Assembly (NCBI GenBank): GCA_000165345.1
Contig: CM000436.1
Location: 960,001-1,024,000, forward strand
Direction of reading: 5' to 3'
Length of the DNA stretch: 64,000 nucleotides
Part shown: positions 1 to 64,000 of the stretch, piece after piece
Layout of the letters: each line of letters opens with the position of its first letter
How positions within the stretch are numbered: the stretch's first letter is position 1
Translations under genes and position numbers: made by a program
The notes under the pieces: generated by a model
What the model saw: the letters and a program-made list of their open reading frames with translations, nothing else
Told to the model about the DNA's origin: nothing
Database searches by the model: none

Positions 1-139
1 AAATAGATAATATAAACTAATATTAATTTGGCAATTGAAAAACAAATTTGGAATATCAAACTTGAAAACAAACTTCAATACAAAAATATTGAATCTTTTG
101 ATTCGTATTGAAATTCAGTAACACAAAAAAATCAATTTT

Positions 140-988
140 TTAACTTACCTCAATTTGAGTATTTTTCTTCCATTCATCACAAACATCTATACACCACTCA
201 AAAGTGTTATCTAGTACTGGATTATATTTATCCCAAAACTTCAGCTCAGCTTTAATTCTTTTATTAGAAGATTTGGAATTGAGTCGTGAATAAATTCCAA
301 ACTTTGCTGAATCGTTCAAAATAGTTGAAGAAAGTCTTTTATTCTTACGATTAAGATGCATTTGTAATTCTTGATTCATTAATGTTAGATCAAGTATTTC
401 TCTTCTAATTTCATCCAACTTAGTTTTAGAGTCTTCGTTTAATGACGAAATTAATCCAGTTGGAGGAAGCTGATTGCATAACTTTAAAGCATTTTGAATG
501 AAGATACGTATTGCAAGTATATCGGACCATATTTTACGCTGATTTTTCACATTTTCACCTCTTTCTTTATCATATATCATTTTATCCATGATTTTAGTAT
601 TATCCACAATAGAAAAATTAGCTTCCAACTCTTTATATTTATCGACCTTTCTAGAAATAGAATCAGATAGTTGAATATTATTCTTAAAATCGGAGTATTC
701 TTCATTAATATTGTCAAATCCAGTAATATCATTAATGCTATAATCATATGCAGCCTCCTCAAATTTAGAGTTTTCATCTCTAGTAGAAATTTCTCTGTCT
801 CTCATTTCTTTAAAATCAGATAGAGATATCTTCTCTCCAGCATATTTTTTAGGCAAATTAAAATTTGCTCTGAATCTCAATCTACCGTCATTTTTACTGA
901 ATTCACTTATATCTGGGGTTTCTTCTTGGTCTATTTCTGAGCCGCTTTGGTTCTTTCTATCATAAAATTCATCATCATAAAAATCCAT
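140..988 (-). CDS. hypothetical protein, 282 aa, K/E/D/N-rich with no recognisable domain
   Basis: Uninterrupted ORF with a true ATG (complement of 986-988). It shares a roughly 500-bp divergent upstream region with the Dcc1-like gene, and that region carries GGCGCC sites. Confidence 0.45.
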   Translation of the reverse strand: MDFYDDEFYDRKNQSGSEIDQEETPDISEFSKNDGRLRFRANFNLPKKYAGEKISLSDFKEMRDREISTRDENSKFEEAAYDYSINDITGFDNINEEYSDFKNNIQLSDSISRKVDKYKELEANFSIVDNTKIMDKMIYDKERGENVKNQRKIWSDILAIRIFIQNALKLCNQLPPTGLISSLNEDSKTKLDEIRREILDLTLMNQELQMHLNRKNKRLSSTILNDSAKFGIYSRLNSKSSNKRIKAELKFWDKYNPVLDNTFEWCIDVCDEWKKNTQIEVS

Positions 989-1369
989 TTTGTTTTAGAA
1001 CCTGAATCACTAAAAGATATTTTAAGACTGCTTATTACCTGTGTATAAACTTTCAGTAGATGTCCAAATTTTATTATTACTACCTTACAAGTTATTTTAT
1101 ACTATACGTCTGAATTTACTTTTCGACAGTAATTATTGACTTTTTTTTAAGCGGACAATTTGAAAAATTTTAGATAAAAATTTGTTACCCTGTAGGCGCC
1201 AACTATCTGTTAATTCAATTTAAAGAAAAACATGAAAAAGCAATTGTGAAAATTAAGGCTACATGGTTATTATGCAGCAGAAACAACATATCATAAATTT
1301 CTTTTTAACGGCTATAAAAACATTTACTTTTTTAAATCAAACTTGCATTTTCATATTAAAAAAAAGTTA

Positions 1370-1386
1370 TTGGCGCTAAATGTGGG
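1370..1386. promoter_or_regulatory. E2F-like site TTGGCGCTAAATGTGGG upstream of the Dcc1-like gene (a second site, GGCGCCAA, lies at 1195-1202)
   Basis: Direct reading. The site is 100-300 bp upstream of the ATG at 1489. Confidence 0.5.
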
Positions 1387-1488
1387 AAAGTAATATTTAA
1401 ATATTTGGTGTGAGGTTAAAATATAATGAACAGGTGTTTATGTTGTTTTATCTAAGCAGAGTGAATCAAACTTATAATATATCCTGAA

Positions 1489-2934
1489 ATGGAGGTAGAT
1501 TTCCATACTCTATACTCAAAAGCAGCTAGTAGTTGGTCTCTTTTACAATTGGATCCAAATTGCGAGGAAAGCCTTAGAAATGGGAAACAGTTATGGTTAA
1601 AGGGCCTGAAAAACAATAGAGAGAACTGTAATGTTCCAACAGTTATTTGTACAGAAAACGAGACCTTTTATCTTAGACGTGAGAAAAGTAGTAATGTAAC
1701 GTATTTAGCTATCGAATCTGAAAATGGAGAATTAATTGAGATGCAAAACGATGAGAACTCTCCTAACAATGAAAGCTACAATGCAAATAAACTTTCAGTA
1801 GTTGGAAATTTGAACAGCATTGTAGTTATGATTAAAATTCCTGCTATTATGAATCTTTTCGAGGATTACATAGCTAGTCATAGAAATTTAACTAATAATT
1901 CACACTCCGAAATGACTTTTAAAAAGCTATTTAGCATATCTCAGATAAGTTTGATGGAGCTATATAATTTCTTATTTGATTACAGCAGCATGATGTACTG
2001 TGATATAGAAGGAAACTGGTATTCAATTAACAACGAAATTTTGTTATTTTTGTTGAGCTCGCTTTTACAAAAAGGGATGTCAATGAATAAATCTTTCAGG
2101 TATATGACTGTTAAAGATGTAAAATACTTGCTAAGAGAATCTTTTTCAGAGTTAGAATCTCTAGGGGAATCTTTGGAAAATAGCATTAATTACAACGTTT
2201 TAAAGCATGCATTGAGTTTTGACTTAACGTTAATCCAATTGATCAAACATATCATCGTTCCTGCAGATAACAATTTAGGAAATTTGGTTTTCGATGAATT
2301 TGTCGAGGAAAACATTAAAAATCTTCTATCTTCTCCTCGGATACAGGATCATGTGTCTCTAAGAAACATTGATAGCATGAGAGTTGACTTTTCATATAAG
2401 AGAATACAGGGAATTCTTGCTACATCTATTTTAAAAAAACATCAAGTTCTGAAAGCAAGAGATTATATTGAGGAATTTCAAAACATTCTTTCAAACTATA
2501 TTCCTTTAGAACTAAGTGAACTAGAATTCGAATATAATGACACAAACGCAATATCAGATTTAGATGGCGAAAAAAATATCAAGGTAGAAACTGACTTTTA
2601 CTATGGGTTCCCTTTAATCGAAAACCATCCAGATAACACGGGGATCAGGTTCGATATAATTGCGGGTCAGGCATATTACAATCATGAGGATGATGCAATT
2701 ATTTATTTGCCCAGTTCGTCCCTTCCAATTGACCCACGTAATAGGCTCTCAATTTTGTTTCGCAAAAAGAAGCATTGGCATATTTCGGAGCTTAATGCTT
2801 ACATTTCTCCAGTTCTACAGCCGAGCATTAAACTTGAAGCGTTCTGCCTTAAAAATTGCTATGTTTGTGAACAAAATATTTTTAATAAAAATTATAGACT
2901 TTTTTACAATAAAAATCTTCCTCTCATGCATTAG
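1489..2934 (+). CDS. DCC1: sister chromatid cohesion protein Dcc1-like (Ctf18-RFC subunit), 481 aa
   Basis: ATG at 1489. The C-terminal block NRLSILFRKKKHWHISELNAYI aligns with Dcc1 ERFNSLFSLREKWTEEDIAPYI. The N-terminal LLQLDPN...VICTE block also resembles Dcc1. The match is from memory of the family, not from a search. Confidence 0.5.
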   Translation: MEVDFHTLYSKAASSWSLLQLDPNCEESLRNGKQLWLKGLKNNRENCNVPTVICTENETFYLRREKSSNVTYLAIESENGELIEMQNDENSPNNESYNANKLSVVGNLNSIVVMIKIPAIMNLFEDYIASHRNLTNNSHSEMTFKKLFSISQISLMELYNFLFDYSSMMYCDIEGNWYSINNEILLFLLSSLLQKGMSMNKSFRYMTVKDVKYLLRESFSELESLGESLENSINYNVLKHALSFDLTLIQLIKHIIVPADNNLGNLVFDEFVEENIKNLLSSPRIQDHVSLRNIDSMRVDFSYKRIQGILATSILKKHQVLKARDYIEEFQNILSNYIPLELSELEFEYNDTNAISDLDGEKNIKVETDFYYGFPLIENHPDNTGIRFDIIAGQAYYNHEDDAIIYLPSSSLPIDPRNRLSILFRKKKHWHISELNAYISPVLQPSIKLEAFCLKNCYVCEQNIFNKNYRLFYNKNLPLMH

Positions 2935-3291
2935 ACATGACGTGAAGGCATGGGCGCTTCCACGATACCAGTTGACATGTGTTAAAAAGGGTTTAGGGAA
3001 TATATATAATAGAGTATTACAGCTTTCATTAATTTATAAAGAAATTTGTCATCTGAGTTTATCAAATTAGAATATAGAGAAAGTTGGATTCGAAACTTTT
3101 TATGTTCCGATCATTTTTGATGCTTGGATAAAAAGATATAAATATTGATAACTCAAAGCCAGACTTTTTTCTTCATTTTCCAACAAGTTATTCCTCACAG
3201 AATAGTTTTCATTATTGCTTTTTTATTAATATATTTAGCACAATATTACTTATTTCTACGGCTTTTGAAAGTAAAAGGAAATATCATAAAT

Positions 3292-3806: not shown

Positions 3807-3890
3807 AATGTAGATAAAAAGTTCTACCTGTACTTTTTATTTTTCCTAAATAGTAATATAATAAATTTCTAGAATAAGATATTTTTTAAT

Positions 3891-4511: not shown

Positions 4512-4599
4512 TGAAGTTTATTAATCCCGAGAATAATGCTTCATCTTTTATTTTATTTGAAAAGGTAAGCTGCAAAAAGCAGGAATTTTGAAAAAATAA

Positions 4600-4617
4600 T
4601 TGGCGCCGAAACTGGGG
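4600..4617. promoter_or_regulatory. E2F-like site TTGGCGCCGAAACTGGGG upstream of UBC6
   Basis: Direct reading. Confidence 0.5.
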
Positions 4618-4752
4618 ATAAATTAGTAATTATGTATGGACCATATTTAATTATAAATACTAATATTTTATATTATTGCAAGTAAGAGAACAGTTAAAGG
4701 GATTCGAAGGTACAATTGGATTAAAGAAAGCGATTTTTCTTTGGATCCTAAG

Positions 4753-6005: not shown

Positions 6006-6024
6006 TTGGCGCCAAAATGTGAGG
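6006..6024. promoter_or_regulatory. E2F-like site TTGGCGCCAAAATGTGAGG
   Basis: Direct reading. The site is 50 bp upstream of the ATG at 6071. Confidence 0.5.
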
Positions 6025-9854: not shown

Positions 9855-9862
9855 GGCGCGAA
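9855..9862. promoter_or_regulatory. GGCGCGAA in the shared 180-bp divergent promoter of the patatin pair
   Basis: Direct reading. Confidence 0.35.
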
Positions 9863-21440: not shown

Positions 21441-21957
21441 ATCTTCTGATACAAATTAAATGTACTATATTTACTTCTTTTAGTCTTTAGATGATATCGC
21501 ATGAAATATATTGATTTACCTTTTATTATTTTAATTTAGAATTTCTTTTCTTACCTACCCCACATGCTTTGCTTTATCTACATCTCCATTAAATTATATA
21601 TTTGAACAATTCCCGCCTTTTGTGTGCAAATAATACAAAATTTTAAACTGAAGGCGAATTAGAATTAATGAAAATAGTAGAAGAAATAATCTTTCAAAAT
21701 GGAGCATGATAATTTAAATATCTAGTGGACTACTTTTTGTTATCTTTGGATGTTTGTGCTTTTAATAATTAGTAATTTATTTGTTTTAGTCAATTAGTCG
21801 TAACTAGCTATATTAAATAAAAGGTTTTGGCGGTAAAGTATCGAATATAATAAACATTGACCTGGGAAAAAAATTAAGTAAAACCTGCTTTAAGTTGTTG
21901 TCCAACTTAAATAATATTTTAACTTAGGCGAATTAACTAGCTATATGATTTAATAAA

Positions 21958-26236: not shown

Positions 26237-26732
26237 CCTTTATTATTAATTATTAACTTTTTACTTCAAAAAATTCCTCATCTATTGATTTTACTTTTCT
26301 TTTAATTTCCAATTACATTTCCCCACAGTTATGAGGAGCCAAATGTAAAATATGCTATTATTAAAATTATATCGAAAAAATTACTCAAGTTTTATTTAAA
26401 TGAAGAAAAATAATACTTAATTATAATTTTCTGTTTCAATGTTTATTTATCTTTGTTTTTAAAATTATTTTTCTTAAATTCAAAATGTTATTAATTTTCA
26501 ATTTATTTTCACGTTTATTTCTTGATAGTTTTTAAGTCTATTACATGCGAATGATGAACATAGGAATTTTACACGTGATTTTCATACAAAATGTTAAAAT
26601 AAGAGGAAATTATTAATTAATTCAAGAAAAGTTGGTATAAAATGTCAAACAGATAAAAAGTGGCTGAATGAAATAAACAAGGTATAGTTAGGAATTAGAT
26701 TTTGATAGACAAATTTACTATATTTTGATATA

Positions 26733-28020: not shown

Positions 28021-28045
28021 TTTGGCGCCAAAATGTTTATTTGGG
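28021..28045. promoter_or_regulatory. E2F-like site TTTGGCGCCAAAATGTTTATTTGGG, 90 bp upstream of the WDR82 start
   Basis: Direct reading. Confidence 0.5.
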
Positions 28046-29031: not shown

Positions 29032-29358
29032 CTTTATTATATCACAGCTTCTATAGATTAAAATATGTTGCTTTATAATTCAATCTTTAGAGTAATTATT
29101 ATAACCGCCTTCGTTTTTTTTAGTAACTTTCATATTATAGTCAAATTTTGATTAATTGCCCGCCCGATTGTGCCGCCACTTTATATGGTTTTACACGACA
29201 TGTACATGTCATTTTTGGCCTGAAGTGTGATTGAATAATAATTTTTACTAAAAACAAAAATAGATAGAAATTGAGATAATTTTTTCAAAAGTAATACATG
29301 GAATCTTGTGGGAGTATCACAGAAGAGTGTATTTGAGAATTATACGTCTAAAGAAAGA

Positions 29359-31122
29359 ATGGCTTCTCTCAATGATATTAGTAAAGGTTCACAGGGGAGC
29401 CAGTTAATAGATTTAAATGGCTCTGAGAAGAGAAATGACTATATGGACTACATGTCACATTTGCAAAGTAGTGCTGCTCAATTGAGATATGAAAATAGTG
29501 TTTTAAAGAATGATAATGCAAATTTAGTATCAAAGTTGGACAGAGCTGTGAGTAAGAGTAGAAATGGAGTAGAAATACCAGAAAATGCAACAACAGCAGA
29601 AATTGCGGAGGCATTTGAAAAGTTGAATGATGAAAACTGCAGATTAAAGAGAGAAATGGAACGTTTGATACGATCAAATACTAGATATAGGGTTGCAATG
29701 CAAAATAGAGATCCTAGCTTAATTCCCTCTGAAGAACAAGATAAAAGTTTTTTTAACTCTGATGACTCTGGAGGAAGGTTATGCCAGTGTGAATATATAC
29801 TTAATGAAATTCTAGAAGCAGTTTCTTATAAGTTAGAAACTTATGAAAAGCATATCTGGGAACATAGATTAGCTACTTTAACTAGTGAAAGAGATGAAAT
29901 TGCTGTCCAGAATATTTCACTAGTAGATAGGCTAGCTGAAATTGAAGCAATTATTAAAGTAGATCATGTTCTTGCTGAAAGATTTAATGTTCCTCTAGAA
30001 GGTTGTGATGAAAAGAATCAAATATTAACTTTACACCGTAAGTTGGGCTTTGCATTGGATGTAAACCAGCAGCTCGAAAGAAGATTAGCTTTTGAAACGC
30101 AGCTTTCAAGATCTTGGCAAAGTAATATGCATACAATTGTTAGTGAGGTAAGTTTTTCCTAAAAAGTTTGCCATTTGCTAACTTTATTGTGACCAATTTC
30201 TAATTTCCCGCCACCCCACATTGCAATTATTACATGCATTTGCAAATTATTTGCACATTTTATAGTTAAGGCAATATATGTATGAACTTGGATCTATTAT
30301 AAAACAGTCAAATGGTTGTGAGATATTTAGAACTGTAAATTCTTCAGGTAAGTTACATATATGCAAACCAAATCCTTATAAAATGAAAATTATTTAACTG
30401 AAATTCTTTTTTTTTCAGACCAAACTGGTAATAAAGGCTCTGGAAGTATTGTGGAAGCTCCTGGTTACAGAAAAGCTGATAGAGAAAGTTTAAAGTTATT
30501 AAGGCTGGCAAAACAAAGAATTGAGGCTGATACAAAGAGATTAGAAACATGTAATAAAAGAATTATAGAATTAGAAAATGAGGTTGCATCATTAAGGGTA
30601 CGTAATCATTCATATATATATAGGGAAGGAGCAATAAACCATGATGCTGCAAGCAGAGGAATCATGAACGAAATTCTACCTCCACCAAAAATTTCAGCTC
30701 AGGATTTGACTGGAGGTCTAGTCAGATCATTTTCAAAAGCTCAAAATGACAATAATCTATTTTCTGCTAATAAAGGAGTACTCAATGTTAAATTGGATAA
30801 AGTTGATGAATCTGAAGATACTGGTAATAATACTCATGTCAAACAGGAAGTACTTCAATCCGAGGTTAATAAAAATTCAAGTAGCATTTCTCAAGAAAAA
30901 AACAAAAGTTCTAATGAAATTCATGATCTTGAGGAAGGAAATAGTACTCATAGAAGTCATCATAGTAGTCATCATAGTAGCCATCATAATACTCACCGTT
31001 CTCATACTCAAAGTCATTCTTCAACTCATAGAAGCCATCAATCTGGATCGTCCAATGATCATCATGGCCCTAAATCATCAAAATCTCATTCATCATCGTC
31101 ACATTCTAAGAAAGATAGATAG
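29359..31122 (+). CDS. coiled-coil protein with His/Ser-rich C-terminus, 3 exons (29359..30147, 30266..30347, 30419..31122), about 524 aa
   Basis: Track ORF 1 ends in GAG|GTAAGT. The exon from 30266 to 30347 is 82 nt, flanked by TTTTATAG and GTAAGT, and open in only one frame. It joins in phase to ORF 2, which has no ATG of its own (the track start is GTG). The first ATG of exon 1 is at 29359. Confidence 0.5.
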
Positions 31123-40839: not shown

Positions 40840-40961
40840 TGGGCTTATCTATTATCCAATATTCTCTAACTTTAACCTCTTTTTTCAGAAATCTTACTTT
40901 ATTTTCCTTTTTCACACTTTTTTTTCAAAAAACTTATATTTATTGCAATATTTTTGGCAAG

Positions 40962-40972
40962 TTGGCGGGAAC
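40962..40972. promoter_or_regulatory. TTGGCGGGAAC, 120 bp upstream of the HisRS start
   Basis: Direct reading. Confidence 0.45.
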
Positions 40973-41570
40973 TTTTTTTTTTTGTCTACAAGTTTTTCTT
41001 TACATAAACCGGCAATTAAATACAAAAGAAAGATAATATTATAAATACACATTTTTAATCTAGTACGAACTACAATTAAACAAGAAGGTAACGAGTTAGC
41101 CAATTAAAGTTTCTAATAAATTAATTACTGAATATTATTTTGAAAATGCTTGAATATTTCTGCACTCAGTTCTAAATATTCTTCTTAATTTATAATTGTT
41201 GTTATCCCTGATATTTTGCAGTCTGACAAGTTTACTGTAAATTTATCATTCTATTTATTTTTAAAATGGCGATGAATCTCTTTGGTATTTCTTTTTAAAT
41301 AGACTTATGATAATGTGTCTTCTGCATGTCATTTGTTTATGATTTCTTGAATGATATAAAATATGATATTCCCAAAAAAAAAACCCCTTATTGAACTTAT
41401 TGCTTAGATCTCAACTCCTTTTTAATATAACCTGTCTCTTAATATTGCATTATTGAACAAATTAAAATATAAAAAATGACATTTTATCCAGTAATTATTT
41501 AACTTTGCAAAAAATGACCCCTCACTAATTGCTGAATGATAAAGTAACTCTGTCAGTCATATTTAATAAA

Positions 41571-44751: not shown

Positions 44752-44780
44752 AACCCGCCATGAGTTTTTGGCGGGAATCG
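44752..44780. promoter_or_regulatory. inverted pair CCCGCCA-N9-TGGCGGG (TTTGGCGGGAATCG), about 135 bp upstream of the filamin-repeat gene ATG
   Basis: Direct reading. The half-sites are reverse complements of each other. Confidence 0.5.
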
Positions 44781-44910
44781 TTTGTGGATGGTCTAATATT
44801 GTGCATGTAATGCAATTTAATGGCTAGTTAATTATATAGAAAAACTAATTAGGAGTATAAGAGCAGTCAAAATACTGGCTAGACAGTAATAGCTTTCTGA
44901 ATGGGAGACT

Positions 44911-52071: not shown

Positions 52072-52084
52072 ATGGCGCCATATT
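52072..52084. promoter_or_regulatory. palindromic ATGGCGCCATATT between the divergent AP-sigma and RPS29 genes (a second site, TAGGCGGGAACATTTT, lies at 52234-52249)
   Basis: Direct reading. Confidence 0.5.
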
Positions 52085-52469
52085 TATTTATTCTTAAATC
52101 TAATTTAATATTTTTATTAAGAATATAAAACATGTTATATTTAATTAAAATTTCTTTTTTTTCCTGAGAAATGTTCAAGAATTAATAATATCGTTTATAT
52201 TATTTTAAATTAATTACACCAGTTATAGGGCTTAGGCGGGAACATTTTAAGACACGAGTTTGAGACGGAATTAGGTCAGAATGAATAATTAAGGAATAAT
52301 AAATGATAAATAAAAAAGTAGTAAGGTAATAAATATAATATACAAAGCAATAAATAAATTATTAAAAAAAAACAGGCGGTAAATTAAAGGGTGTATATTT
52401 TGAGAAAAAAAGAGCAAATGTCACAAGGGAGTTTTAATTAATTAAAACAAAACTTACATTAATTTAAGA

Positions 52470-52640
52470 ATGGGCTACAGCAAGGTTTACAATTCACATC
52501 CAAAGACTTACGGTCAAGGCAGCAGATGTTGCCGTGTCTGTTACAATCATCATGGCTTAATTAGAAAGTATTCACTGAACATTTGCAGACAATGCTTCCG
52601 TGAAAGAGCAGAAGCAATAGGATTCCACAAATATAAGTAA
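52470..52640 (+). CDS. RPS29: 40S ribosomal protein S29 (eS29), 56 aa
   Basis: [56 protein letters not shown] has the C-x2-C...C-x2-C zinc ribbon and a length typical of eS29. It is absent from the ORF track because it is under 60 aa. Confidence 0.85.
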
Positions 52641-53543
52641 ATTAGTATTTTATATTGGATTGGATTCTGAATTAGTCTTCAGATCTGTAATATTGTTGAG
52701 TCTTCGTTAAAGTACGGTTTACTGGTCTAAAATGTTTATTGCGTGGAGTCTATTGAAGGTTTTGAACAAGAATAATAAATAGGAAAGTTTGTAGAAAAGA
52801 GACTTTGACCAAAGAAACAGAGCTAATGATGATGGTATTTTGTATACAGTATATGTGAATTTGATTTAGATAAGGGTATAATCATATGATTTTACCTGTT
52901 TTTTTTATATTTATATTGGATAACTAGTATTAAAGGTTTGAAGATTTTAACATATATGTATAGATTTATCAGGACTTAGCAATTAGATTTTGATTAGGTT
53001 CCTTATTTAAGGATTATTTAATCATTTTTTAATAGGAATTTACACTTTCTTTTCTCGTTAAAGATGACAGGAGTTGTGGAAATGAGTTTTTGAAGTACTT
53101 ATTTTTGTCTTTTTATTTTGTTAAGTTTTACTTAGCAATTCTACCGGTCATAGATTAGAATTTGGATTAAATATGTGTTTTTTTAATAATACTAACTTTG
53201 TTTCCTCGTTCGTGGTTTTTTTTACAAAATTAATATTTATTTTTGATCCTAATAGACTGGAATATAACTCAAGAGAAGTGAGATTGGGTTAATTTTTTTT
53301 CCTATTTTCATCTTAACTTGTACATTATATACTGAAAAGCAATAGTAATTAATTAACAGAATGAGAGTAAAAGAATACTTTAAGCTCAATTCCAGAAATA
53401 AATATATCATAGATATTGATATATCATAAGATTAAAACAAAAGAAGTAGGTACGTTGTAAGAAGAGGAAAAAATGAATTTATGATTAATTTGTATTGTTT
53501 TCCATGTAAAATAATTACTAAATAAAATTAAATTTTGGCAAGT

Positions 53544-53559
53544 TTTGGCGCCAACTTTG
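53544..53559. promoter_or_regulatory. TTTTGGCGCCAACTTT upstream of Rpn3
   Basis: Direct reading. Confidence 0.5.
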
Positions 53560-55730: not shown

Positions 55731-55749
55731 TTGGCGGTAAATTGTGGGG
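55731..55749. promoter_or_regulatory. TTGGCGGTAAATTGTGGGG upstream of Timeless
   Basis: Direct reading. Confidence 0.45.
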
Positions 55750-56090: not shown

Positions 56091-59000
56091 ATGGAAGAAT
56101 CGTATACTAAGGACAAAGAGTCTATAGCAAATGAGTTGCTTCACTACATTAATTCTTTAATTGAGCCTTTAGCTGACGAATCAGTTGATATTTCTAAAGT
56201 CAATCTAGACAACGTTCAAAATGAATTGAATTTTGGGGGAAGGAAAAGTATATCCAAAATTGAAAAAAGCAATGGGTCAAAACAGGCATGGGTGGTTGGC
56301 GTTGACGCTATTGATGATTTGAGAGATATAATTAAGCTCCTAAAAAGAGAGATTGAAGGAGGAGCAGATTCTGAAAGATATGCTGTAACAATGTTGTGCG
56401 AATGGAATGTTGTGAATACTAAATTGATTCCACTCTGGAATATATCAATAGATAATATAGAAATACAAAGTTTGATCATTCAAGTACTATTTTGGTTGAC
56501 AATTCCTCCAGATGAAAGCTGGAGATCTTTTCGTTCAAAGACAATGAAATGCAGAGCATATTTGAAAAATATGCAAAAAGTAAAGTTTTCATTATGCTCA
56601 ATTTCGTTTTGGCGAGAAATTGTAACACTATATAAGAAGCTTAAGGAAGTCATTCAAAGTCATGGCTTTTTGAAGGAAGATCATGAAGATCTTAGGAATA
56701 GGGAAGAACAAATAGCCTTTTTGAAGGAACAAGATAAAGAGCAGGAAGAAGAGACAACCAAAGAAGTTCATGAAAATGAATCAAGAGATTTTGCTGAGGA
56801 AAATGAAGAAGTTGATGAAAATAATAGAAATAAAATGAAGAGATTGGAAAGGCTTGAGATCATCCGTAATTTAAGAGATGAAATTATTATGATTAATGAA
56901 AGAGCTGAAAAGAGATGCAAACAATTTAAAAGTAGAATTGGAATGATTAAAGGATTGTTAATACAAACTTTAAAGATTCAAGATCAAGTAGTTACAGAGT
57001 CTTTAGCTAATTTCGGAGTAAGATCGGTACATTTGCTCTTAGTTAGTAAGTTAGTTCAAAGTGGAATACTTGAAATTGTTCAAGATGACAGTGAAAGTTT
57101 ATTGAATGATCAAAGGAACTTTTGTAGTATTGATGGCTCTGATGCTGCAGCTCCGTGGAGAATATTAGAATATATATATGGCCTAGTATGTAATATTCAG
57201 CCAATTGATTTTGTTAATGAACTTTTTGGGACTAAGAAAAAATTAACAGAAAATGAAATATTAAAAAATTCTTTGCTTGAGAAGATGAAAATGATTAAAA
57301 AAAGTAGCTCAAGTGGCTTTACTTCTAACTCATTAATGAATAGACATTCTAGATTCAATCCAGAATTGGCCAGAAGAAGGATTAAAGAAAATAATGGTGG
57401 GACCACTGGCCAGGTTGTTAATTCTAAGCGTGTTTCTTCACAAAGAGTGAGTAAATATAGGCATGATTTTGATGTTGATGAAATATTTGAATATATAGAT
57501 ATATTTATTGGAGCAATGCAATCAGCTGGAGGAAATATTCATTGTCTTGAGATGTATGGTTATCCTACAATAGAAGGAACTATAGCAAGCATTGATGGAG
57601 TTCAATCACAATGTTATGATGAAATAGTACAGACATTGGGAGAATTCTTGGAGAATTTTTTCAAATCTAAGCTTCCAATTTTAATTGAGAAGATATTTTT
57701 AATGCTTAGAAATGGAAGTGAAAAACATACATTATGGGATATTTCTAGGTTAATCAGTTTAATGACATGGGTACTTGCATATAAAAGAACTGTATTCTTT
57801 GAAGTTACAAAAAGTGAAAAAGATAAACAAGTCATTAAAGAAGAGTTAACTAGATTATTAATGGAGACAAAATATCTTTTAGATACTAAAGAAAATATGG
57901 CAATCGATTTTATTTACTCAACAATAAAACTCCATGCTAGAGAGAAGTTATTAAAGAATAAATCTCATAAAGTTGCTAGAATCGCAATACGTTGTTTGAA
58001 TGAGCAATTAAAGATAATACATCTAGTATCAAATTCTGAAGAAGAAGCAATCAGAGATTTGGGAGTATCTTTGATAGCTTTTATTATTAGGTTAGATGTA
58101 ATGAATTGCTTATCTTGGATATTGAAGCATTATACAAAGACTTCTCATCATCCAGAGTTATTCTTATATTCAATTGAAGTATCAAATCGTTTGATTAAGC
58201 TATTTAGTAAGCTTGGTGGAGAAACTTTAGTAAATACTCGAAGAAGAAGAAGGGACAAACCAACTAATATGAAAGATTTTAATGACGAGGATTATGATCA
58301 AGATGAAGAGCTTTCAGGATTTAGTGAAATCTATTATAATGAAAAAACTAAGTTAATGAGTTTAGATGAAATGATGGGTGATTATTGTGATGGAAGAATT
58401 GTTTCGAATTTAATGCTTATTGTAAATAATTATTCAACAAATCATTCAAATATTAATTGGCATACTGCAAGACTTGCAAGGAAAATTATTACAACTCGTC
58501 CTCCAGGAGAAGTATCTAAAGTGGGAGAAGATGGTCGTGAAGAACCCTTTATGCAATTATTTTGTGGCTTGTTCTTTCAATTGTCATATTTTATAACTTT
58601 TGCACAAATATTAAGTGATAAGAGTTTTCTTAATCATTCAAAAACTGACAAAGGAGCACAGGATATTATACTATTATCAAGACATGTAATACACCAATTT
58701 TGGGAAGTAGCCAAGGTGAATCAGTTTGTTTTTATGGAATTATTGTTTTCAAAAAATTCTGCAAGAGGACTTGGTTTAGCAGATCCAGAGAGACTTAAAT
58801 CCATTTTTACTGATTATGAGGAAGGGATAGATGCAGCAATTGTTAATAGAATGGAGACTACAGGAAATGATGATGTATTTGAAGCAAGAAGTTTTGTTAA
58901 GAATAAGATTAACAAGGAAAAGCAATCAGCATCAAATTGGACAAAGGAGGATGATGAAGAATTGCTTTCACTATATGCTCAGTACGAGGAAAATCCTAAA

Positions 59001-60989
59001 TGTATTTCAATTATTGCAAGTTTATTATCTGATATAAAGACTGAAAGGTCTGTAAAGAAGAGGTTGAGAGATTTGGGTAAGATATCTAATGAAGAAGATG
59101 AAGAAGACCAAGAAGAAGAGAAGAATATGAGTCAAACAAAAATTAATTCTGATTTGATATTTGGAATTATTGGATTTCATAATATTTCCTTAGAAGAAAT
59201 TAATGAAGATGAATATAGTTTTGATTCAAATATTATATTAAAGGAATTACTTGAGCTTTTAGAGGAATCTCTTACTACAAAGGAAATTTTTAGTGATGGT
59301 CAAATTGATGAAATTCCCATTGAGATTCCCTCAAGCTTACCAATTACATTATTGGATGATAAAAATTATAAGTTGATTATGTCATCTTTGGGATTAAAGG
59401 ATCCAAGAAAAGATCAAAGTTTATGGATGATTCCAAAAGAATTAACTATAGAAGAATACAAAAAGAATATTGATTTGTTTAGAGAATATATAGAAAAGGA
59501 TATATTTGAATTAGAGGAAATAGCTTATAATAATAATGATAATCACACATATAATTCAAGCAATTCTAACTCTGGAGTTGAGAATTTAAAGTATTCAATT
59601 AAGAATTTGAAGAATACAATACAAGATTTTATAGAGGATTCTGAGTTATCAGGTGAAATTTCTAATATAATTGATCATGAAATTCCTATAGAAAATGGAC
59701 TATTACATTTGATTTCAAGTGAACTAAAAGTAATTATTGGAAAAAATAATAATGTTGATAATTGGGAAAGAACTGAGTTGGATGATTTATGTTTTTGTTT
59801 ATCTCAAGAAAGATTGAATATTTTGGGGATAAGAAAGGAGTTTGATAAGATCTATGAATCATTGACTATGTCAAAGTTATTACATTTTCTTGGTTTTAAA
59901 AAGACAAGGATTTCTAATGATGTTGACTTTTTAGTTCATTTAGATAGAGGAATAAGAAAGAAAGATTCTAATATATTTGAAGGAGGTGAAGAAAATAATA
60001 AGACTAGCTTATTTGATGATGATTTGGAAGATGATTTATTAGGAAATGATAATATGAATGATTCTTCAATAAAGGGTTGGATTCTTGACTTTGAGAAGAT
60101 TAAACTTAATGAGTTTAAAGAGAGAAGTAAGATATTCCAAGAATTAGTGATTGGAATGACTGATATAAAGTTAAACATAGGAAAAGATTTGAGTAGGAAT
60201 AATACTTTTTCAAAAGAGACCATTTCTAGAATTTGTTTGGGGATTTATAATTTCAGAAGAAATACTAAGGATTTGAAGATTTTACATCAGATTGTAACTG
60301 TTTTGGATAAGTATTTGTTTAAACAAGGAGATCAAGGTAATAGTGACTATTTGGTAGATATTTATGATAATAATGATTTAATTAGTATTGATGAGTATAC
60401 TATTCAAATAATGGAATCTTTGAATTGTCAAAAAGACGAAAACAATAATTGGTCTATTAAAAGCTTTATTGAATCTTACACTTACGAAAGAATCAAAGAA
60501 TTAAGAGATTTATTACTTAAACTTATTGATCTGGAAATTGTTGAATTAAAAAGATTCACAGAGAAAGTCACAGGAAAGAAACTTAAAGTTAATAAGGAAA
60601 ATATTAGATCAATGAACCAAAGCAATAAAAAAAGGAAAGCCAAGACCTTTATAGAAAAGAATGAGTTAGAGGAAGAAGAGGATGATGATGATGATAATGA
60701 TGATGTTGATAATGATGATGATGTGAAAGGTAAATTGGTCTCTGAAAAAATTATGGATGGAATTGAAGATGGAATTGAAGATGATATTATAGATGACATC
60801 ACAGATAAAATTGATGATAGTATTAACGCGTATATTATTGATGAGAGTGATGATAAATGGAAGAAAAACTGGGAAAACCTTGAGAAAAGAATGCTTAGTG
60901 TGGAAGATGAATGTTCATTAAGTGAATTAGATGAAGATATTGGTAAGATTGATCAAATACCAGATAATTTATTTGGAGAGGATGATTAA
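56091..60989 (+). CDS. TOF1: Timeless/Tof1/Swi1 replication fork protection protein with an acidic C-terminus
   Basis: The N-terminal DDLRDIIKLLKRE...MLCEWNVVNTKLIPLW matches the Timeless N-domain. NQFVFMELLFSKNSARG matches human NQKAFVELLFWKNTAV. A D/E-rich tail is present. The first ATG is at 56091. Confidence 0.7.
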   Translation: MEESYTKDKESIANELLHYINSLIEPLADESVDISKVNLDNVQNELNFGGRKSISKIEKSNGSKQAWVVGVDAIDDLRDIIKLLKREIEGGADSERYAVTMLCEWNVVNTKLIPLWNISIDNIEIQSLIIQVLFWLTIPPDESWRSFRSKTMKCRAYLKNMQKVKFSLCSISFWREIVTLYKKLKEVIQSHGFLKEDHEDLRNREEQIAFLKEQDKEQEEETTKEVHENESRDFAEENEEVDENNRNKMKRLERLEIIRNLRDEIIMINERAEKRCKQFKSRIGMIKGLLIQTLKIQDQVVTESLANFGVRSVHLLLVSKLVQSGILEIVQDDSESLLNDQRNFCSIDGSDAAAPWRILEYIYGLVCNIQPIDFVNELFGTKKKLTENEILKNSLLEKMKMIKKSSSSGFTSNSLMNRHSRFNPELARRRIKENNGGTTGQVVNSKRVSSQRVSKYRHDFDVDEIFEYIDIFIGAMQSAGGNIHCLEMYGYPTIEGTIASIDGVQSQCYDEIVQTLGEFLENFFKSKLPILIEKIFLMLRNGSEKHTLWDISRLISLMTWVLAYKRTVFFEVTKSEKDKQVIKEELTRLLMETKYLLDTKENMAIDFIYSTIKLHAREKLLKNKSHKVARIAIRCLNEQLKIIHLVSNSEEEAIRDLGVSLIAFIIRLDVMNCLSWILKHYTKTSHHPELFLYSIEVSNRLIKLFSKLGGETLVNTRRRRRDKPTNMKDFNDEDYDQDEELSGFSEIYYNEKTKLMSLDEMMGDYCDGRIVSNLMLIVNNYSTNHSNINWHTARLARKIITTRPPGEVSKVGEDGREEPFMQLFCGLFFQLSYFITFAQILSDKSFLNHSKTDKGAQDIILLSRHVIHQFWEVAKVNQFVFMELLFSKNSARGLGLADPERLKSIFTDYEEGIDAAIVNRMETTGNDDVFEARSFVKNKINKEKQSASNWTKEDDEELLSLYAQYEENPKCISIIASLLSDIKTERSVKKRLRDLGKISNEEDEEDQEEEKNMSQTKINSDLIFGIIGFHNISLEEINEDEYSFDSNIILKELLELLEESLTTKEIFSDGQIDEIPIEIPSSLPITLLDDKNYKLIMSSLGLKDPRKDQSLWMIPKELTIEEYKKNIDLFREYIEKDIFELEEIAYNNNDNHTYNSSNSNSGVENLKYSIKNLKNTIQDFIEDSELSGEISNIIDHEIPIENGLLHLISSELKVIIGKNNNVDNWERTELDDLCFCLSQERLNILGIRKEFDKIYESLTMSKLLHFLGFKKTRISNDVDFLVHLDRGIRKKDSNIFEGGEENNKTSLFDDDLEDDLLGNDNMNDSSIKGWILDFEKIKLNEFKERSKIFQELVIGMTDIKLNIGKDLSRNNTFSKETISRICLGIYNFRRNTKDLKILHQIVTVLDKYLFKQGDQGNSDYLVDIYDNNDLISIDEYTIQIMESLNCQKDENNNWSIKSFIESYTYERIKELRDLLLKLIDLEIVELKRFTEKVTGKKLKVNKENIRSMNQSNKKRKAKTFIEKNELEEEEDDDDDNDDVDNDDDVKGKLVSEKIMDGIEDGIEDDIIDDITDKIDDSINAYIIDESDDKWKKNWENLEKRMLSVEDECSLSELDEDIGKIDQIPDNLFGEDD

Positions 60990-61049
60990 ATATGATAATT
61001 ATAGTGGACTAATGTCCAAATTAATAATAATAAAAAATATGAATTAAAG

Positions 61050-62777
61050 TTATGACAAGTTGGGGTGTTTTGGAGCATATAATTTAGATTTCTTCTTTGA
61101 GCTTGATCCAACAAATTTGATTTCTCCACTTTTTGTTTCCATAAAACCATCTGGAAGCTCCTCAATATTGTAAGTTTCAAGAGAAGCATTGGAGAATCCT
61201 TGAAATTGGTGTTTTCTTTTCTTTCCAAAAGCAGAAAGAACTCCATTATTACTTGGATTAATTTCAAGATTATCATCATAATAAGCAATAATACTTGAGT
61301 TATTGAGAGCAACAAATATTTGATTAATTTCGTGAGACCATTCAAATGTGGTAATTAACTGGTTATTTATATTAATAAGTTGTTTATGGTTTTTATTTTC
61401 AGCTGAACCAATTAATGAATTTATTTGAAATGAAACTAAAGAACTTTTAGTACGATTACTAATATTTCTATTTTTGGAGTTATTTGAAGTCATATCTTTA
61501 ATTAATGTTGAAGATGTTACGATACTTGTTCCACATTTAGAGAGAATCAGTTTTGAGTGTTCATTTCCATCACTTGGAAGATTTTTAATGGTTTTAAGAG
61601 GATTATTGGCTTTTCTGATATCCCAGATTTTGATAGATTTATCAATAACTCCTCTACTTGCTAAATAATGATCTTGATCTTGATTGTATTTAACAAAAGT
61701 GATATCAGAAATACTATTAATATTTGCATTTTTGTCAAAATGATGTGCATCTCTAATAATAATGGAAGGAGTTTCTGAATATAAATTACCACTTCTTGAG
61801 AATATTTGAATGGATCCATCAGTACAAGAAGCAGCAACCATTTCGCCTAATGAAGAAATACATAAAGAATTGGTTTGAATAGAAGAAATGTTTAGGTTTC
61901 TTTTATCTAAACATTTCATTACAAATGTACTAGGAATATATCCATCAACTCCAAATGGATCACTATTTAGATCAAAAAGACGAATAGTATTATCAATTGA
62001 GCAAGTAAAGAAACGATTATAGTTTATAGGATCCCATTTACAACTAACAATCATATGTGTATGACCAGGATTTGATTTAACAGACTTAACATATGGATCG
62101 CCTTGTACGGTACCGGTAATAAATTCGCCATTACTTTGAAATATTCTACAAATAGAATCACCACAGGCTGCAAGAAAAAGATTTCCATTTTCATTAAATT
62201 CAACTTTTTTTATGGAATGATTTTCTAATGGACAAATTACTTTATTTGGATTCATATCATTTTCATATAAATTATTGAAATCATATATTTCAATTTCTCC
62301 ATTAATCACTCCACAAATCATTCGATTACCTTTATTAGATACAGAAATGGATGTTACAGGTTTTATTTTATTATTTTCATCTATATTTTGATTTGAATCA
62401 TCTTCAGATTTTCTGAACTGAACATATTGAGCTACTGGGTATTCAATCATTGTATTTTTTATCACACTTTCCATTTGTTTCCGCAAGTTAATAATATTGG
62501 CTAAACTATTGATTCCATCTTCTTCATCGTCATTATTATTATTATTAATATTATTATCATTATCAGATTCATCTTTGGATCTTGTTTTAAGTTTTCCACG
62601 GCTTAAACTTTGCTCAATACTTTCATTAATTCTAGAATCTTTAAGATTTTGTGAATTTGATTCATCTGAAATATCTTTATTTGATTTATTATGTCGTTTT
62701 GAAATATATTTTTCATCATCTTCGCTCTGACTTGATGATGAATAGTCTACAAGGGAAATGCTTTTATTAGATTTCAT
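61050..62777 (-). CDS. WD40-repeat protein with an Asn/Asp/Ser-rich N-terminus, 575 aa
   Basis: WD-like blocks include SCKWDPINYNRFFTCSIDNTIRLFDL and IKIWDIRKANNPL. A true ATG is present. Confidence 0.6.
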   Translation of the reverse strand: MKSNKSISLVDYSSSSQSEDDEKYISKRHNKSNKDISDESNSQNLKDSRINESIEQSLSRGKLKTRSKDESDNDNNINNNNNDDEEDGINSLANIINLRKQMESVIKNTMIEYPVAQYVQFRKSEDDSNQNIDENNKIKPVTSISVSNKGNRMICGVINGEIEIYDFNNLYENDMNPNKVICPLENHSIKKVEFNENGNLFLAACGDSICRIFQSNGEFITGTVQGDPYVKSVKSNPGHTHMIVSCKWDPINYNRFFTCSIDNTIRLFDLNSDPFGVDGYIPSTFVMKCLDKRNLNISSIQTNSLCISSLGEMVAASCTDGSIQIFSRSGNLYSETPSIIIRDAHHFDKNANINSISDITFVKYNQDQDHYLASRGVIDKSIKIWDIRKANNPLKTIKNLPSDGNEHSKLILSKCGTSIVTSSTLIKDMTSNNSKNRNISNRTKSSLVSFQINSLIGSAENKNHKQLININNQLITTFEWSHEINQIFVALNNSSIIAYYDDNLEINPSNNGVLSAFGKKRKHQFQGFSNASLETYNIEELPDGFMETKSGEIKFVGSSSKKKSKLYAPKHPNLS

Positions 62778-63188
62778 ATAAATTCAATATAATTAATATT
62801 TATATAAACTTATTGATATATGTATATATATCAATGTAATTCTTACTATTTGTACTTGTATTTAGATTTTCTAATATTGTATATTGAAAGAATATTGAAT
62901 TAAAAATTATTTGTTATTAATATATTTTTTTTTTTAATTAAATTAGTTTCACTTATTCCCGGGTATAGCTAAAATATGAAAATTCTATTAATTCCCCATT
63001 ATTACCCAATAATTAATAAATTTGTAATCGAAAAAAAAAAATATATATATATATATATATACATATTTATATTTATATTTACATTCCCACAATTAATTTT
63101 AAAAAAGTTGGCAAAAAAAGTATATAACAAAATAATTAGCTCATAATACAAATATTTAAGCCATATTATTTAAATCAAATTACTTAAT

Positions 63189-63879
63189 ATGTCTGTATTA
63201 GTTACTGTTGGTACCACCAAATTTGATTTACTAATAAAACAAGTTGATAAAGTAGAATTTCTTGATCAATTTTAGAATTGGATATAATAATTTATGTATT
63301 CAATATGGGAGGTAATGTAAAATTTCAACGCCACGTGTTTTTATTATTTATTGCATGCATGCAATAACAATAAAAACACGTGTATATTACGTAATTGTTA
63401 TTTAAAAAAATAATAATTTTTTTTAGTGGGGAATATGTTCCAATACCAAGAAAAGTTAAACATAGTAAAATTTGTGATAATATTATTGGTAATAATAATG
63501 AGAAATTTCTTGAAATTAAAGCAATACCTTATATGAAAGAGATTATATATTTAAATTATGATCTTATAATAGGTCATGCAGGGGCTGGTACAATACTAAA
63601 TTCTTTAAGAAATAATGTAAGTTTTATTTATTGGATTATATTAATAATAGTCCAATTATATTAAGTTATTCAAGTTAAAAAAAAAATTATTTGAAATAAT
63701 GAAATAATTAATTTATTACTATCTTAACAATAAACTTATTTAACTTAAATACTTAGAGAAAAATGATTGTTGTAATAAACAAATCTTTAATGGATAATCA
63801 TCAAGCTGAGTTAGCAACACAACTCGATAATAATAAATATCTTATTGCTATTGATAATGTTAATGATTTAATTAACACA
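63189..63879 (+). CDS. ALG13: ALG13 (UDP-GlcNAc transferase subunit, GT28 C-terminal domain), partial. Exons 63189..63311 (apparent +1 frameshift), 63427..63616 and 63757..63879. The gene continues beyond the window.
   Basis: MSVLVTVGTTKFDLLI matches the ALG13 N-terminus. DLIIGHAGAGTILNSLRNN|KMIVVINKSLMDNHQAELATQL matches the ALG13 core across a GTAAGT intron. All donors are GTAAGT or GTAATG. Confidence 0.65.
63332..63382. repeat. 51-bp near-perfect inverted repeat CACGTGTTTTTATTATTTATTGCATGCA|TGCAATAACAATAAAAACACGTG inside ALG13 intron 1
   Basis: The arms are reverse complements with one mismatch and one indel. It is centred on TGCATGCATGCA and flanked by CACGTG. Confidence 0.85.
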
Positions 63880-64000
63880 GTAAGTTATCTTAATAATTAT
63901 TAAAAAAATCATTCTAATTTATTAAAAATATTAACAATTTTATTAATTCCTTAATTTCATATTAATTTATATAATATTTCAAACAAACATATAATTTCCA

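Follow-up and report, generated by a model that had tools for sequence, protein, structure and literature searches.

An E2F-like element common to most promoters in a Cryptosporidium parvum window and its composite with an adjoining G-box

The GC-rich element repeated upstream of genes on a stretch of Cryptosporidium parvum chromosome 8 is very probably the site (TTTSGCGCSAAA) of the Cryptosporidium E2F/DP winged-helix heterodimer, used as a general promoter-defining element, with the G-box being a separate element that joins it in composites at a minority of promoters. The window, i.e., the whole 64-kb stretch analyzed, runs from cgd8_3810 through past cgd8_4020; C. parvum proteins matched exactly 13 of the 13 ORF products looked up (including cgd8_3810, cgd8_3850, and CPCDC_8g4020), in line with the first-pass annotation, which had suggested Cryptosporidium as the taxon. 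Within this window we established the enrichment, position, conservation, and flank anatomy of the element, as well as the composite's fixed spacing and orientation; conservation was followed by site-by-site footprinting against 7 other Cryptosporidium lineages.

Results

The E2F-like core is enriched in 5' spacers. GGCGCC occurred 8 times in the window compared to 0.41 expected and GGCGGG 7 times compared to 1.22 expected, while the published Motif 3 pattern DTTGSCGCCH was matched exactly at 7 sites, giving 11 strand matches compared to 0.27 expected; none of these counts was reached in 100 shuffles. GGCGCC was also the most over-represented intergenic hexamer, 31-fold above a second-order Markov expectation, and matches to GGCG[CG][CGT] numbered 25 in intergenic and 3 in coding DNA, a density ratio of approximately 26. 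The window sites carry a [C/G]GCGC[G/C]-type core, with GGCGCG present twice and the other relaxed sites (GGCGGT, GGCGCT, and GGCGGC) one base off GGCGCC, GGCGGG, or GGCGCG; the GGCGGG sites match the published Motif 4 (TTTGGCGGGAAV) at ≤2 mismatches. At every position for which the first-pass annotation had listed a site, the sequence it gave was present.

A relaxed site was found in the 5' spacer of 23 of the 27 genes (~85%), which span all functional classes, and a strict GGCGCC or GGCGGG core in that of 18 of 27, with only 1 site in total in the seven convergent 3'-3' spacers. Because of these counts, the earlier description of the upstream element as near-universal is a fair one. The median distance to the ATG was 192 bp, and 15 of the 23 nearest sites lay 50 to 250 bp upstream. 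The split between intergenic and coding matches and that between 5' and convergent spacers place the sites in promoters rather than in coding or 3' regions. Several palindromic sites had been assigned to divergent promoters; most palindromic cores lie in tandem promoters, and only those at 1195, 4602, and 52074 are divergent. The inverted pair CCCGCCA/TGGCGGG was confirmed, with a spacer of 8 nt (44754/44770) instead of the 9 nt given before. All sites are collected in Table 1.

Core and A-tract are conserved as a unit. The site pattern requires GGCG, and position 5 is exclusively C or G. T stands at positions -1 and -2 in 22 to 23 of the 32 oriented flanks and A at the first two 3' positions in 24 to 26 of 32, against a background of 38% per base, which is the T-rich 5' and A-rich 3' flank of TTTSGCGCSAAA. 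The first two flank bases carry 0.4 to 0.6 bit in the window, and the TGT positions beyond them ≤0.24 bit. When C. parvum was compared to Cryptosporidium ubiquitum, identity was 89% in the core and 88% in the A-tract compared to 62% in the intergenic background (P < 0.001), the pattern of purifying selection on core and A-tract as a unit, whereas the TGT zone was at 61% (P = 0.61). The first-pass view that conservation of AAAATGT equals that of the core thus fails, its TGT part being at background; the AA(A) run represents the canonical, conserved E2F flank.

C. ubiquitum retains 17 of the 19 testable sites at near-identical distances, and sites persist at orthologous positions in as many as 6 other species amid diverging DNA. 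The E2F-like words TTGGCG, GGCGGT, and GGCGCT are enriched in intergenic DNA of C. muris as well, where sites are fewer and weaker than in C. parvum and where no GGCGCC was found in the spacers of L004.

These data bear on whether the GC-rich palindrome could be the target of another factor, or a structural element, that resembles an E2F site by coincidence. The element is much more widely spread than a cell-cycle regulon, the expression of many target clusters is reportedly not tracked by E2F profiles, and the spacers are 25% GC, so that any GC hexamer would be conspicuous in them. Yet the enrichment is restricted to E2F-type words, with CGCGCG-type and other GC-rich hexamers not comparably enriched in the window hexamer counts; the flanks obey the TT...AA rule of E2F sites; and asymmetric GGCGGGAA variants, equal to the canonical TTTGGCGGGAAA, are used beside the palindrome. 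Moreover, the E2F-like motif is bound by none of the tested C. parvum AP2 domains, and among apicomplexans E2F/DP is known from Cryptosporidium alone, as is the motif. Altogether, we consider a coincidental resemblance unlikely. In its structural version, this alternative would have the element exclude nucleosomes or serve as a bidirectional core promoter within highly AT-rich spacers.

A G-box adjoins the core in a composite subclass. The first-pass annotation described the sites as usually flanked by ...AAAATGTG(R)GG. However, TGTG[GA]G or NTGGGG stands at that spacing, 3 to 5 nt past the core, at 4 of 24 sites (~17%), compared to 0.10 expected (P < 5e-5), a statistic drawn from the same window as the original sighting and from only 4 sites, or 5 if the degenerate one at MutS is counted, with orthologous sites in other species being non-independent samples. 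Composites make up 4 of the 13 AA-flanked sites compared to 0.5% expected, their offsets (4, 5, 5, and 5) cluster at +4/+5, and all four are oriented toward the gene (1372, Dcc1; 4602, UBC6-like; 6008; and 55733, Timeless). All three composites with orthologous sequence are conserved, that of Timeless as far as C. muris, and identity in the TGT zone is 0.96 at composite sites vs 0.67, the background rate, at the others. The longer consensus is therefore valid at few promoters only, where the G-box (TGTGGGG) directly adjoins the core: the proposal that the flank is part of one functional element is only partly supported, in that its spacing and orientation are indeed fixed and conserved in this subclass.

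The 3' extension corresponds to the published G-box Motif 2, which is matched exactly at 55742, 21558, and 30214 and with one mismatch at 1380, 6017, 19568, and 26321 (among the extensions, 55742 is exact and 1380 and 6017 have one mismatch); at 4610 only the TGGGG part is present. The G-box also occurs, conserved in three species, without an adjacent E2F core (21558, 53 bp from the nearest one), lies on the opposite side of the core at 19569 and 30214, and at 30214 is retained in C. ubiquitum though the E2F core is lost there.

Could the full 18 to 20 bp, TTGGCGCCAAAATGTG(R)GG, be a single extended site for one protein or complex, of which the shorter sites are degenerate versions? TGT stands at +4 to +6 in 7 of 32 oriented flanks, more than the 1.4 expected (P = 4e-4), the spacing is tight, and a marginal excess of TGT remains in non-composite flanks without the G-run (4 of 28 vs 4.4%, P = 0.03). 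Against such a site, the extension is absent from 20 of 24 sites whose cores are equally conserved, the TGT zone diverges as fast as the background, and orthologues of the sites at 14257, 19579, and 28024 lose TGT. The conserved TGTGGGG that stands without an adjacent core or 5' of one, the published binding of the G-box by ApiAP2 domains, and genome-wide MEME motifs that end at 10 to 12 nt (C. parvum) argue likewise, and we regard a single extended element, rejected here on both its frequency and its conservation, as very unlikely. An example of a reader for such a site would be a Cryptosporidium E2F/DP with added 3' specificity. Finally, a chance or compositional origin, or descent from a dispersed repeat, has only the limited sample size of a single 64-kb window in its favor. 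It is refuted by the shuffles, the intergenic density, the retention of sites amid diverged DNA, and the flanks, among which no similarity was found beyond ~20 nt, and has next to no probability.

Table 1. E2F-like sites, composites, and G-boxes in the window
Position	Strand	Sequence	Context	Conservation
1195..1200	.	GGCGCC core	divergent promoter cgd8_3810 (-)/Dcc1 (+)	
1370..1386	+	composite TTGGCGCT-AAA-TGTGGG (E2F-like core, then G-box)	117 bp upstream of Dcc1	
4600..4617	+	composite TTGGCGCC-GAAAC-TGGGG	divergent promoter hyp206 (-)/UBC6-like cgd8_3850 (+); faces UBC6	flank GAAACTGGGGATAAA identical in C. ubiquitum, near-identical in SRR18693150
6006..6024	+	composite TTGGCGCC-AAAA-TGTGAGG	63 bp upstream of hyp696 (8g3860)	C. 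ubiquitum, SRR18693150; C. felis keeps TGTGAGG
9855..9860	+	GGCGCG core	divergent promoter between two patatin-like genes	GGCGCG-MATCTAWTAAT in C. ubiquitum, SRR18693150, C. felis
14255..14266	.	TTGGCGCCTAAA	280 bp upstream of Sub2/DDX39 helicase (cgd8_3900)	GTTGGCGCCTAAA in 4 species; following TGT not kept
16444..16449	-	GGCGGT (TTTTGGCGGTAAA on - strand)	221 bp upstream of MFS transporter	
19577..19588	.	TTGGCGCCAAAA; TGTGGG 5' of core at 19569	214 bp upstream of hyp244 (-)	core kept; flanks and TGTGGG not
21554..21567	-	stand-alone G-box ATGTGGGG (- strand)	nearest E2F core 53 bp away	CCTACCCCACATGC in 3 species
21612..21617	-	GGCGGG, preceded by TGCACACAAAA (CACACA-type ApiAP2 motif)	faces GTPase gene (-)	C. 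ubiquitum, SRR31860986, C. felis
21827..21838	+	TTGGCGGTAAAG	129 bp upstream of eIF2B-gamma	
26321..26346	-	degenerate variant TTTGGCTCC-TCATAAC-TGTGGGG	~98 bp upstream of MutS-like gene	
28021..28034	.	TTTGGCGCCAAAAT, 12-bp palindrome	106 bp upstream of WD40 gene (-)	C. canis keeps TTTGGCGCCAAAA, not TGT
29158..29178	-	tandem pair GCCCGCC-N6-GCCGCCA	divergent NAP (-)/hyp493 (+) promoter	both cores in C. ubiquitum and C. canis; further site at 29104 not conserved
30204..30221	-	TTTCCCGCC-ACCCCACAT; G-box 5' of E2F core (- strand)	within 118-nt hyp493 intron	G-box in C. ubiquitum and C. canis; E2F core in C. canis only
40962..40973	+	TTGGCGGGAACT	130 bp upstream of HisRS (-)	
44754..44791	.	inverted pair CCCGCCA-N8-TGGCGGG, then TTTGTGGATGG	divergent hyp783 (-)/filamin-repeat (+) promoter	pair in C. 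ubiquitum and C. canis; C. muris also has GGCGCC...TTTGTGGAT
52072..52081	.	ATGGCGCCAT, 10-bp palindrome	between AP-sigma (-) and RPS29 (+)	
52235..52240	+	GGCGGG	235 bp upstream of RPS29 gene (52470-52640)	
52375..52380	+	GGCGGT	95 bp upstream of RPS29	
53544..53555	.	TTTGGCGCCAAC	251 bp upstream of Rpn3	C. ubiquitum and C. canis share TTTTGGCGCCAA
55731..55749	+	composite TTGGCGGT-AAAT-TGTGGGG	358 bp upstream of Timeless/Tof1-like gene	4-nt spacer also in C. ubiquitum, C. canis; C. muris orthologue has GGCGGG-ATTTTA-GTGGGG upstream

Discussion

We take from the literature that E2F/DP genes are present, that the motif is associated with ATAC-seq peaks, and that AP2 domains bind the G-box. An E2F-like motif was first seen on C. 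parvum chromosome 6 (Bankier 2003), and Motifs 3 and 4 are the most over-represented C. parvum upstream motifs (Oberstaller 2013, PMC3734150), with the upstream over-representation of these E2F-like motifs extending to 161 of 200 expression clusters. Published ATAC-seq data associate the E2F-like motif with open chromatin at the 5' ends of transcripts, with E2F the dominant motif in sporozoite peaks (2025 preprint 10.1101/2025.01.17.633476). Among apicomplexans, retention of E2F/DP is known only in Cryptosporidium; the E2F genes reported for C. parvum are cgd1_1570 and cgd6_1430, along with two DP genes, while E2F partner proteins are mostly reported absent except DP1, RPD3, and LIN-53. The E2F-like identity proposed in the first-pass annotation agrees with all three lines, i.e., the published motifs, the ATAC-seq data, and the genus-level retention. 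A 2025 review notes that functional validation is lacking for most Cryptosporidium regulatory components.

Since the window element belongs to the published family of Motifs 3 and 4, it is already known: organism, core, TT/AA flanks, upstream location, and near-ubiquity are all alike, and we see no essential difference, the window being a local sample of a genome-wide pattern. The canonical animal and plant E2F/DP site likewise has a [C/G]GCGC[G/C] core set between T-rich (5') and A-rich (3') flanks and, as in the window, occurs promoter-proximally in palindromic and GGCGGGAA forms (structure in Zheng et al. 1999). It differs in reach, as the animal and plant site serves a cell-cycle/S-phase regulon via Rb and DREAM, whereas the window element precedes ~85% of the genes, whatever their functional class.

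We infer that E2F/DP occupies these sites and that there is interplay with AP2 proteins. The predicted target of the heterodimer is a TTTGGCGCCAAA-type sequence. One or two copies are present in nearly every 5' spacer, typically 60 to 450 bp from the start codon and often common to divergent gene pairs; judged by the distance to the ATG and the published ATAC-seq data, such sites would define promoters in this compact genome. The AA(A) run is part of the E2F site, and TGTG(R)GG is an unrelated, separate G-box bound by ApiAP2 domains such as that of cgd8_810, which is among those that bind Motif 2 (DTGTGGGG), or 5'-G[T/C]GGGG-3'. At a minority of promoters, the G-box abuts the A-tract at a fixed 3 to 5 nt on the gene-proximal side, where E2F/DP and a G-box-binding AP2 protein may sit side by side, cooperatively or competitively, and this arrangement would lend the generic site stage or cell-cycle specificity.

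In the metazoan CDE/CHR tandem, read by DREAM at cell-cycle gene promoters, an E2F-like CDE is followed after 4 nt by the CHR TTYGAA. The composites resemble it in pairing an E2F-type site with a second short element approximately 4 nt away at cell-cycle/replication genes (Dcc1 and Timeless), but their second element is TGTGGGG rather than TTYGAA. We therefore reject CDE/CHR membership, since TTYGAA does not follow 4 nt downstream, and take the likeness as an analogy of layout; the window flanks hold a single TTYGAA-like word near a core, TTCAAA at 21612, which is not conserved in C. ubiquitum.

TGTG(R)GG, the 3' portion of the first-pass consensus, is the apicomplexan G-box Motif 2. The published G-box is an independent motif of variable position, whereas in the window subclass it lies 3 to 5 nt 3' of the E2F core in a fixed orientation. 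What is added to the published motifs is cross-lineage footprinting of each site and this G-box partner at a fixed spacing, and the fixed-spacing E2F and G-box module is the sole possibly new element in the window.

Identity and gene content of the window

The window has a GC content of 30% and is gene-dense and nearly intron-free. Each of the 13 ORF products that were looked up matched an annotated Cryptosporidium parvum protein exactly, which confirmed the first-pass annotation's guess of Cryptosporidium and assigned the window to C. parvum chromosome 8; the 13 include cgd8_3810, Dcc1 (8g3820), the UBC6-like protein cgd8_3850, 8g3860, the Sub2/DDX39 helicase cgd8_3900, eIF2B-gamma, a MutS-like ATPase, and 8g4020. 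The remaining genes were assigned by Pfam. The Timeless-like product had no match in the local Pfam copy; its orthologues have TIMELESS/TOF1 families. A 56-aa RPS29 gene (ribosomal S14 family) was too short for the ORF listing, and its position explains three E2F-like sites in an apparent 2.2-kb spacer.

Enrichment and position of the E2F-like core

Against expectations of 0.41 and 1.22, the window had 8 copies of GGCGCC and 7 of GGCGGG, respectively, counts reached by no shuffle, and chance is a weakly supported explanation of the sites. There were 11 strand matches to the published Motif 3, DTTGSCGCCH, with 0.27 expected, and when the spacer hexamers were scanned without bias, GGCGCC came out at the top (31-fold) and CCCGCC next. 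The relaxed core GGCG[CG][CGT] had 25 intergenic versus 3 coding matches, a 26-fold contrast in density. A relaxed site was located in the 5' spacer of 23 of 27 genes and a strict core (GGCGCC or GGCGGG) in that of 18, the median core-to-ATG distance was 192 bp, and the seven convergent 3'-3' spacers contained one site in total. The first-pass annotation had proposed such an element before nearly all genes; its sequence was present at every coordinate it listed, and the enrichment and the occupied 5' spacers bear out the core of that observation.

Its reading of these putative sites as E2F agrees with published work, in which an E2F-like motif, seen on chromosome 6 already in 2003, is the most over-represented upstream motif of C. 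parvum, preceding 161 of 200 co-expression clusters (Oberstaller 2013, PMC3734150), and dominates both sporozoite ATAC-seq peaks and the stretches between cistrons of polycistronic transcripts (10.1101/2025.01.17.633476). E2F and DP genes are retained in Cryptosporidium and, as far as is known, in no other apicomplexan genus. The GGCGCC/GGCGGG phenomenon is already known, and finding this best-documented Cryptosporidium cis element again from raw sequence is a sanity check of the scan, with no new biology.

In the best-supported reading, the sites are putative E2F/DP sites with a general promoter role in a compact genome. Each 5' spacer would be served by one or two copies, which divergent gene pairs would use jointly; in two divergent spacers, the A-rich arm of each of two paired asymmetric sites faces its own gene. 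Gene-specific timing would arise from neighbors such as an abutting G-box, CACACA, GCATGCA, and others, and one CACACA motif, which is fused with the site at 21612, is conserved out to C. felis. We infer the occupancy of the sites, as we do any interplay of E2F with AP2 factors. That a non-E2F factor binds the sites, or that they form a purely structural element, is weakly supported.

Conservation of the sites across species

For cross-species footprinting, the syntenic block was taken from C. ubiquitum, C. canis, C. felis, C. ryanae, and C. muris, plus two Logan assemblies, in which the amino-acid transporter has 80% and 72% identity to its C. parvum counterpart; all compared blocks shared one gene order. 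When orthologous spacers were aligned, the E2F-like sites appeared as conserved islands, with 17 of the 19 testable C. parvum sites kept in C. ubiquitum at an almost unchanged distance from the gene. Between these two species, identity was 89% at the core (P < 2e-4 versus random positions) and 88% at the A-tract, the three bases 3' of the core (P = 4e-4), compared to 62% over all aligned spacer positions. The gain from footprinting is modest, namely that core and A-tract are under selection site by site in at least five intestinal-clade lineages. Further conserved blocks around the sites comprise the G-box, CACACA, GCATGCA, and an undescribed ATACCGG motif.

Spacers without GGCGCC at one C. 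muris locus (L004) had prompted the idea that this species has no E2F sites. It was rejected, as C. muris k-mers and a second locus revealed enrichment of TTGGCG, GGCGGT, and GGCGCT and one GGCGCC site; the E2F-like sites of C. muris are weaker and sparser, not missing. The GC content of the syntenic block is 29-30% in C. parvum, C. muris, and C. ubiquitum, 42% in C. canis, and 48-50% in the SRR31860986 assembly and C. felis; in the GC-rich species, E2F-like hexamers are frequent by chance, e.g., the cluster at 12277-12324 of the C. felis block (L002).

The extended consensus and the G-box

From the sequence alone, most sites had been proposed to carry a 3' extension, AAAATGT, as conserved as the core. 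All 32 oriented flanks went into a base-frequency matrix, with palindromic sites entered both ways so that the strand was not picked by eye. The first two 3' bases were A in 24-26 of the 32 flanks (0.4-0.6 bit) and the third was A or C, while the TGT positions carried at most 0.24 bit. In the C. ubiquitum comparison, the four bases after the A-tract, where the TGT would fall, were 61% identical (P = 0.61 versus random positions), i.e., at spacer background. The claim of equal conservation therefore fails for TGT, and flank information content together with cross-species identity rules out a single long consensus. AA(A) itself is just the A-rich arm that a canonical E2F site, TTTSGCGCSAAA, has. 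Recognition of the whole 20-mer by one protein is likewise weakly supported.

Of the 32 flanks, 7 had a TGT that starts at +4 to +6, versus 1.4 expected (P = 4e-4). At the non-composite sites 14257, 19579, and 28024 it is gone in orthologues, and the leftover excess is marginal (4 of 28, P = 0.03). The extension stands for a subclass with an abutting G-box (TGTGGGG, published Motif 2) and falls as a general property. Because the G-box behaves independently in the window, we consider the proposed consensus an average of ordinary E2F sites and an E2F/G-box subclass.

The G-box is bound by C. parvum ApiAP2 domains, including that of cgd8_810, in protein-binding microarrays. One copy is kept in three species with the nearest core 53 bp off; another, 5' of an intronic core, is retained in C. 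ubiquitum despite loss of that core, and a third likewise lies 5' of its core. The hyp493 intron, 118 nt long, contains a minus-strand cluster of promoter type, made up of an E2F core, ATGTGGGG, and ACATGCATTTGCAAAT; both C. ubiquitum and C. canis keep its G-box and GCATGCA block, and the cluster may be an internal or antisense promoter.

E2F and G-box composites

In the composites, a G-box follows the E2F core 3-5 nt away, TTGGCGGTAAATTGTGGGG being a stretch with core, spacer, and G-box. TGTG[GA]G or NTGGGG started 3-5 nt past the core at 4 sites, against 0.10 expected (P < 5e-5), and given the AA flank, the composite was present in 4 of 13 versus 0.5%. In all composites, the G-run lies on the gene-proximal side and reads in the sense direction of the gene that follows. 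Identity to C. ubiquitum over +4 to +11 was 96% at the three composites compared, those at 4602, 6008, and 55733, and 67% at other sites. The module upstream of hyp696 is still present in C. felis, that upstream of the Timeless-like gene has its 4-nt spacer unchanged in C. ubiquitum and C. canis, and the C. muris Timeless orthologue has GGCGGG-ATTTTA-GTGGGG upstream. A partner of CDE/CHR type, TTYGAA, was discarded, as it was absent or not conserved.

In Mullapudi et al. (2007), every DNA-replication gene tested was preceded by a G-rich motif and a subset also by a motif with a CGCCAA core, so the co-occurrence of both at replication genes is already published. The 2013 paper noted only that motifs differ in orientation, spacing, and number, which it considered in need of study; its supplementary tables give expression-cluster membership for the window genes, without per-gene motif positions. 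The literature searched described neither a fixed spacing or orientation of E2F and G-box nor an ACCGG motif in Cryptosporidium. An E2F and G-box module with fixed spacing and orientation, conserved throughout the genus at orthologous promoters and seen at four or five sites in one window, may be the sole new part.

We tentatively propose, with more doubt than confidence, that a discrete module of E2F core, A-rich spacer of 3-5 nt, and gene-proximal TGTGGGG predates the intestinal-gastric split, marks a gene subset, and acts through obligate side-by-side binding of E2F/DP and an ApiAP2 factor. The subset would include replication and cohesion genes (Dcc1, Timeless, and perhaps the MutS-like gene), and E2F/DP and the G-box-binding ApiAP2 would lie adjacent on the module, binding cooperatively or in mutual exclusion. 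If true, this would link the ancestral eukaryotic E2F system directly and physically to the lineage-specific ApiAP2 system. The division of labor between E2F and ApiAP2 factors is a question posed in the 2013-2025 literature, and a module that held genome-wide would give a testable handle on how gene-specific timing is obtained from a near-universal E2F site.

A looser element in the filamin-repeat gene promoter, TTTGTGGAT, is kept from C. parvum to C. muris (about 2202-2210 of locus L011), with a spacer that differs by 2 nt.

Coordinates of sequence features in the C. parvum window
Position	Feature	Context
1372	composite	upstream of Dcc1
4602	composite	upstream of UBC6-like gene
6008	composite	upstream of hyp696
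55733	composite	upstream of Timeless-like gene
26321-26346	degenerate fifth composite	upstream of MutS-like gene
44781-44791	TTTGTGGAT, TGTGG-type	3' of E2F site
21612/21829	paired asymmetric sites	divergent spacer
44754/44770	paired asymmetric sites	divergent spacer
21558	G-box ATGTGGGG	
30214	G-box	5' of intronic E2F core
19569	G-box	5' of core
30148-30265	hyp493 intron	
52074, 52235, 52375	E2F-like sites	apparent spacer holding RPS29
52470-52640	RPS29 gene	
56091-60989	Timeless-like product	
11951-11968	(T)ATACCGG(T), perfect 18-bp palindrome ATACCGGCATGCCGGTAT	amino-acid-transporter promoter
14454, 19601, 41008, 53143, 55659	(T)ATACCGG(T)	
about 15930-16070 (+)	conserved block	Sub2/DDX39-MFS transporter spacer
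40947-40961	11-mer TTTGGCAAGTT	HisRS
53531-53545	11-mer TTTGGCAAGTT	Rpn3
63332-63382	51-bp near-perfect palindrome CACGTGTTTTTATTATTTATTGCATGCATGCAATAACAATAAAAACACGTG	upstream of WD40 gene at 62777

Other conserved elements in the spacers

The (T)ATACCGG(T) motif is recurrent, and its palindromic copy is located in a 5' spacer that is one of four without an E2F site. Most copies lie 20-200 bp from E2F cores and are kept in C. ubiquitum and C. canis. C. parvum spacers had 6 copies of TACCGG (1.24 expected) and C. muris spacers 8 copies of ACCGGT (0.93 expected); the motif was not found among 25 published motifs or in the literature searched.

The block between the Sub2/DDX39 and MFS transporter genes matches its C. 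ubiquitum counterpart at 88% identity and that of the Logan species with the 72%-identical transporter at 81%, far over spacer background. It has no ORF and no Rfam match (none at E ≤ 1 over 15821-16664), and blastn found no counterpart in C. felis, C. ryanae, or C. muris; TGATGA at 15961 with CTGA downstream is in the manner of a C/D-box snoRNA. Structured RNAs or tRNAs as the source of conserved spacer blocks were rejected, the window having no tRNAs and no Rfam match at the gathering threshold.

An identical 11-mer lies directly 5' of two unrelated E2F sites, in the HisRS and Rpn3 promoters, and, since neither C. ubiquitum nor C. canis conserves it, is probably due to chance or a decayed second half-site. 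Lastly, the near-perfect palindrome upstream of the WD40 gene, in a spacer lacking an E2F site, has CACGTG at either end and the ApiAP2 motif GCATGCATGC at its center.
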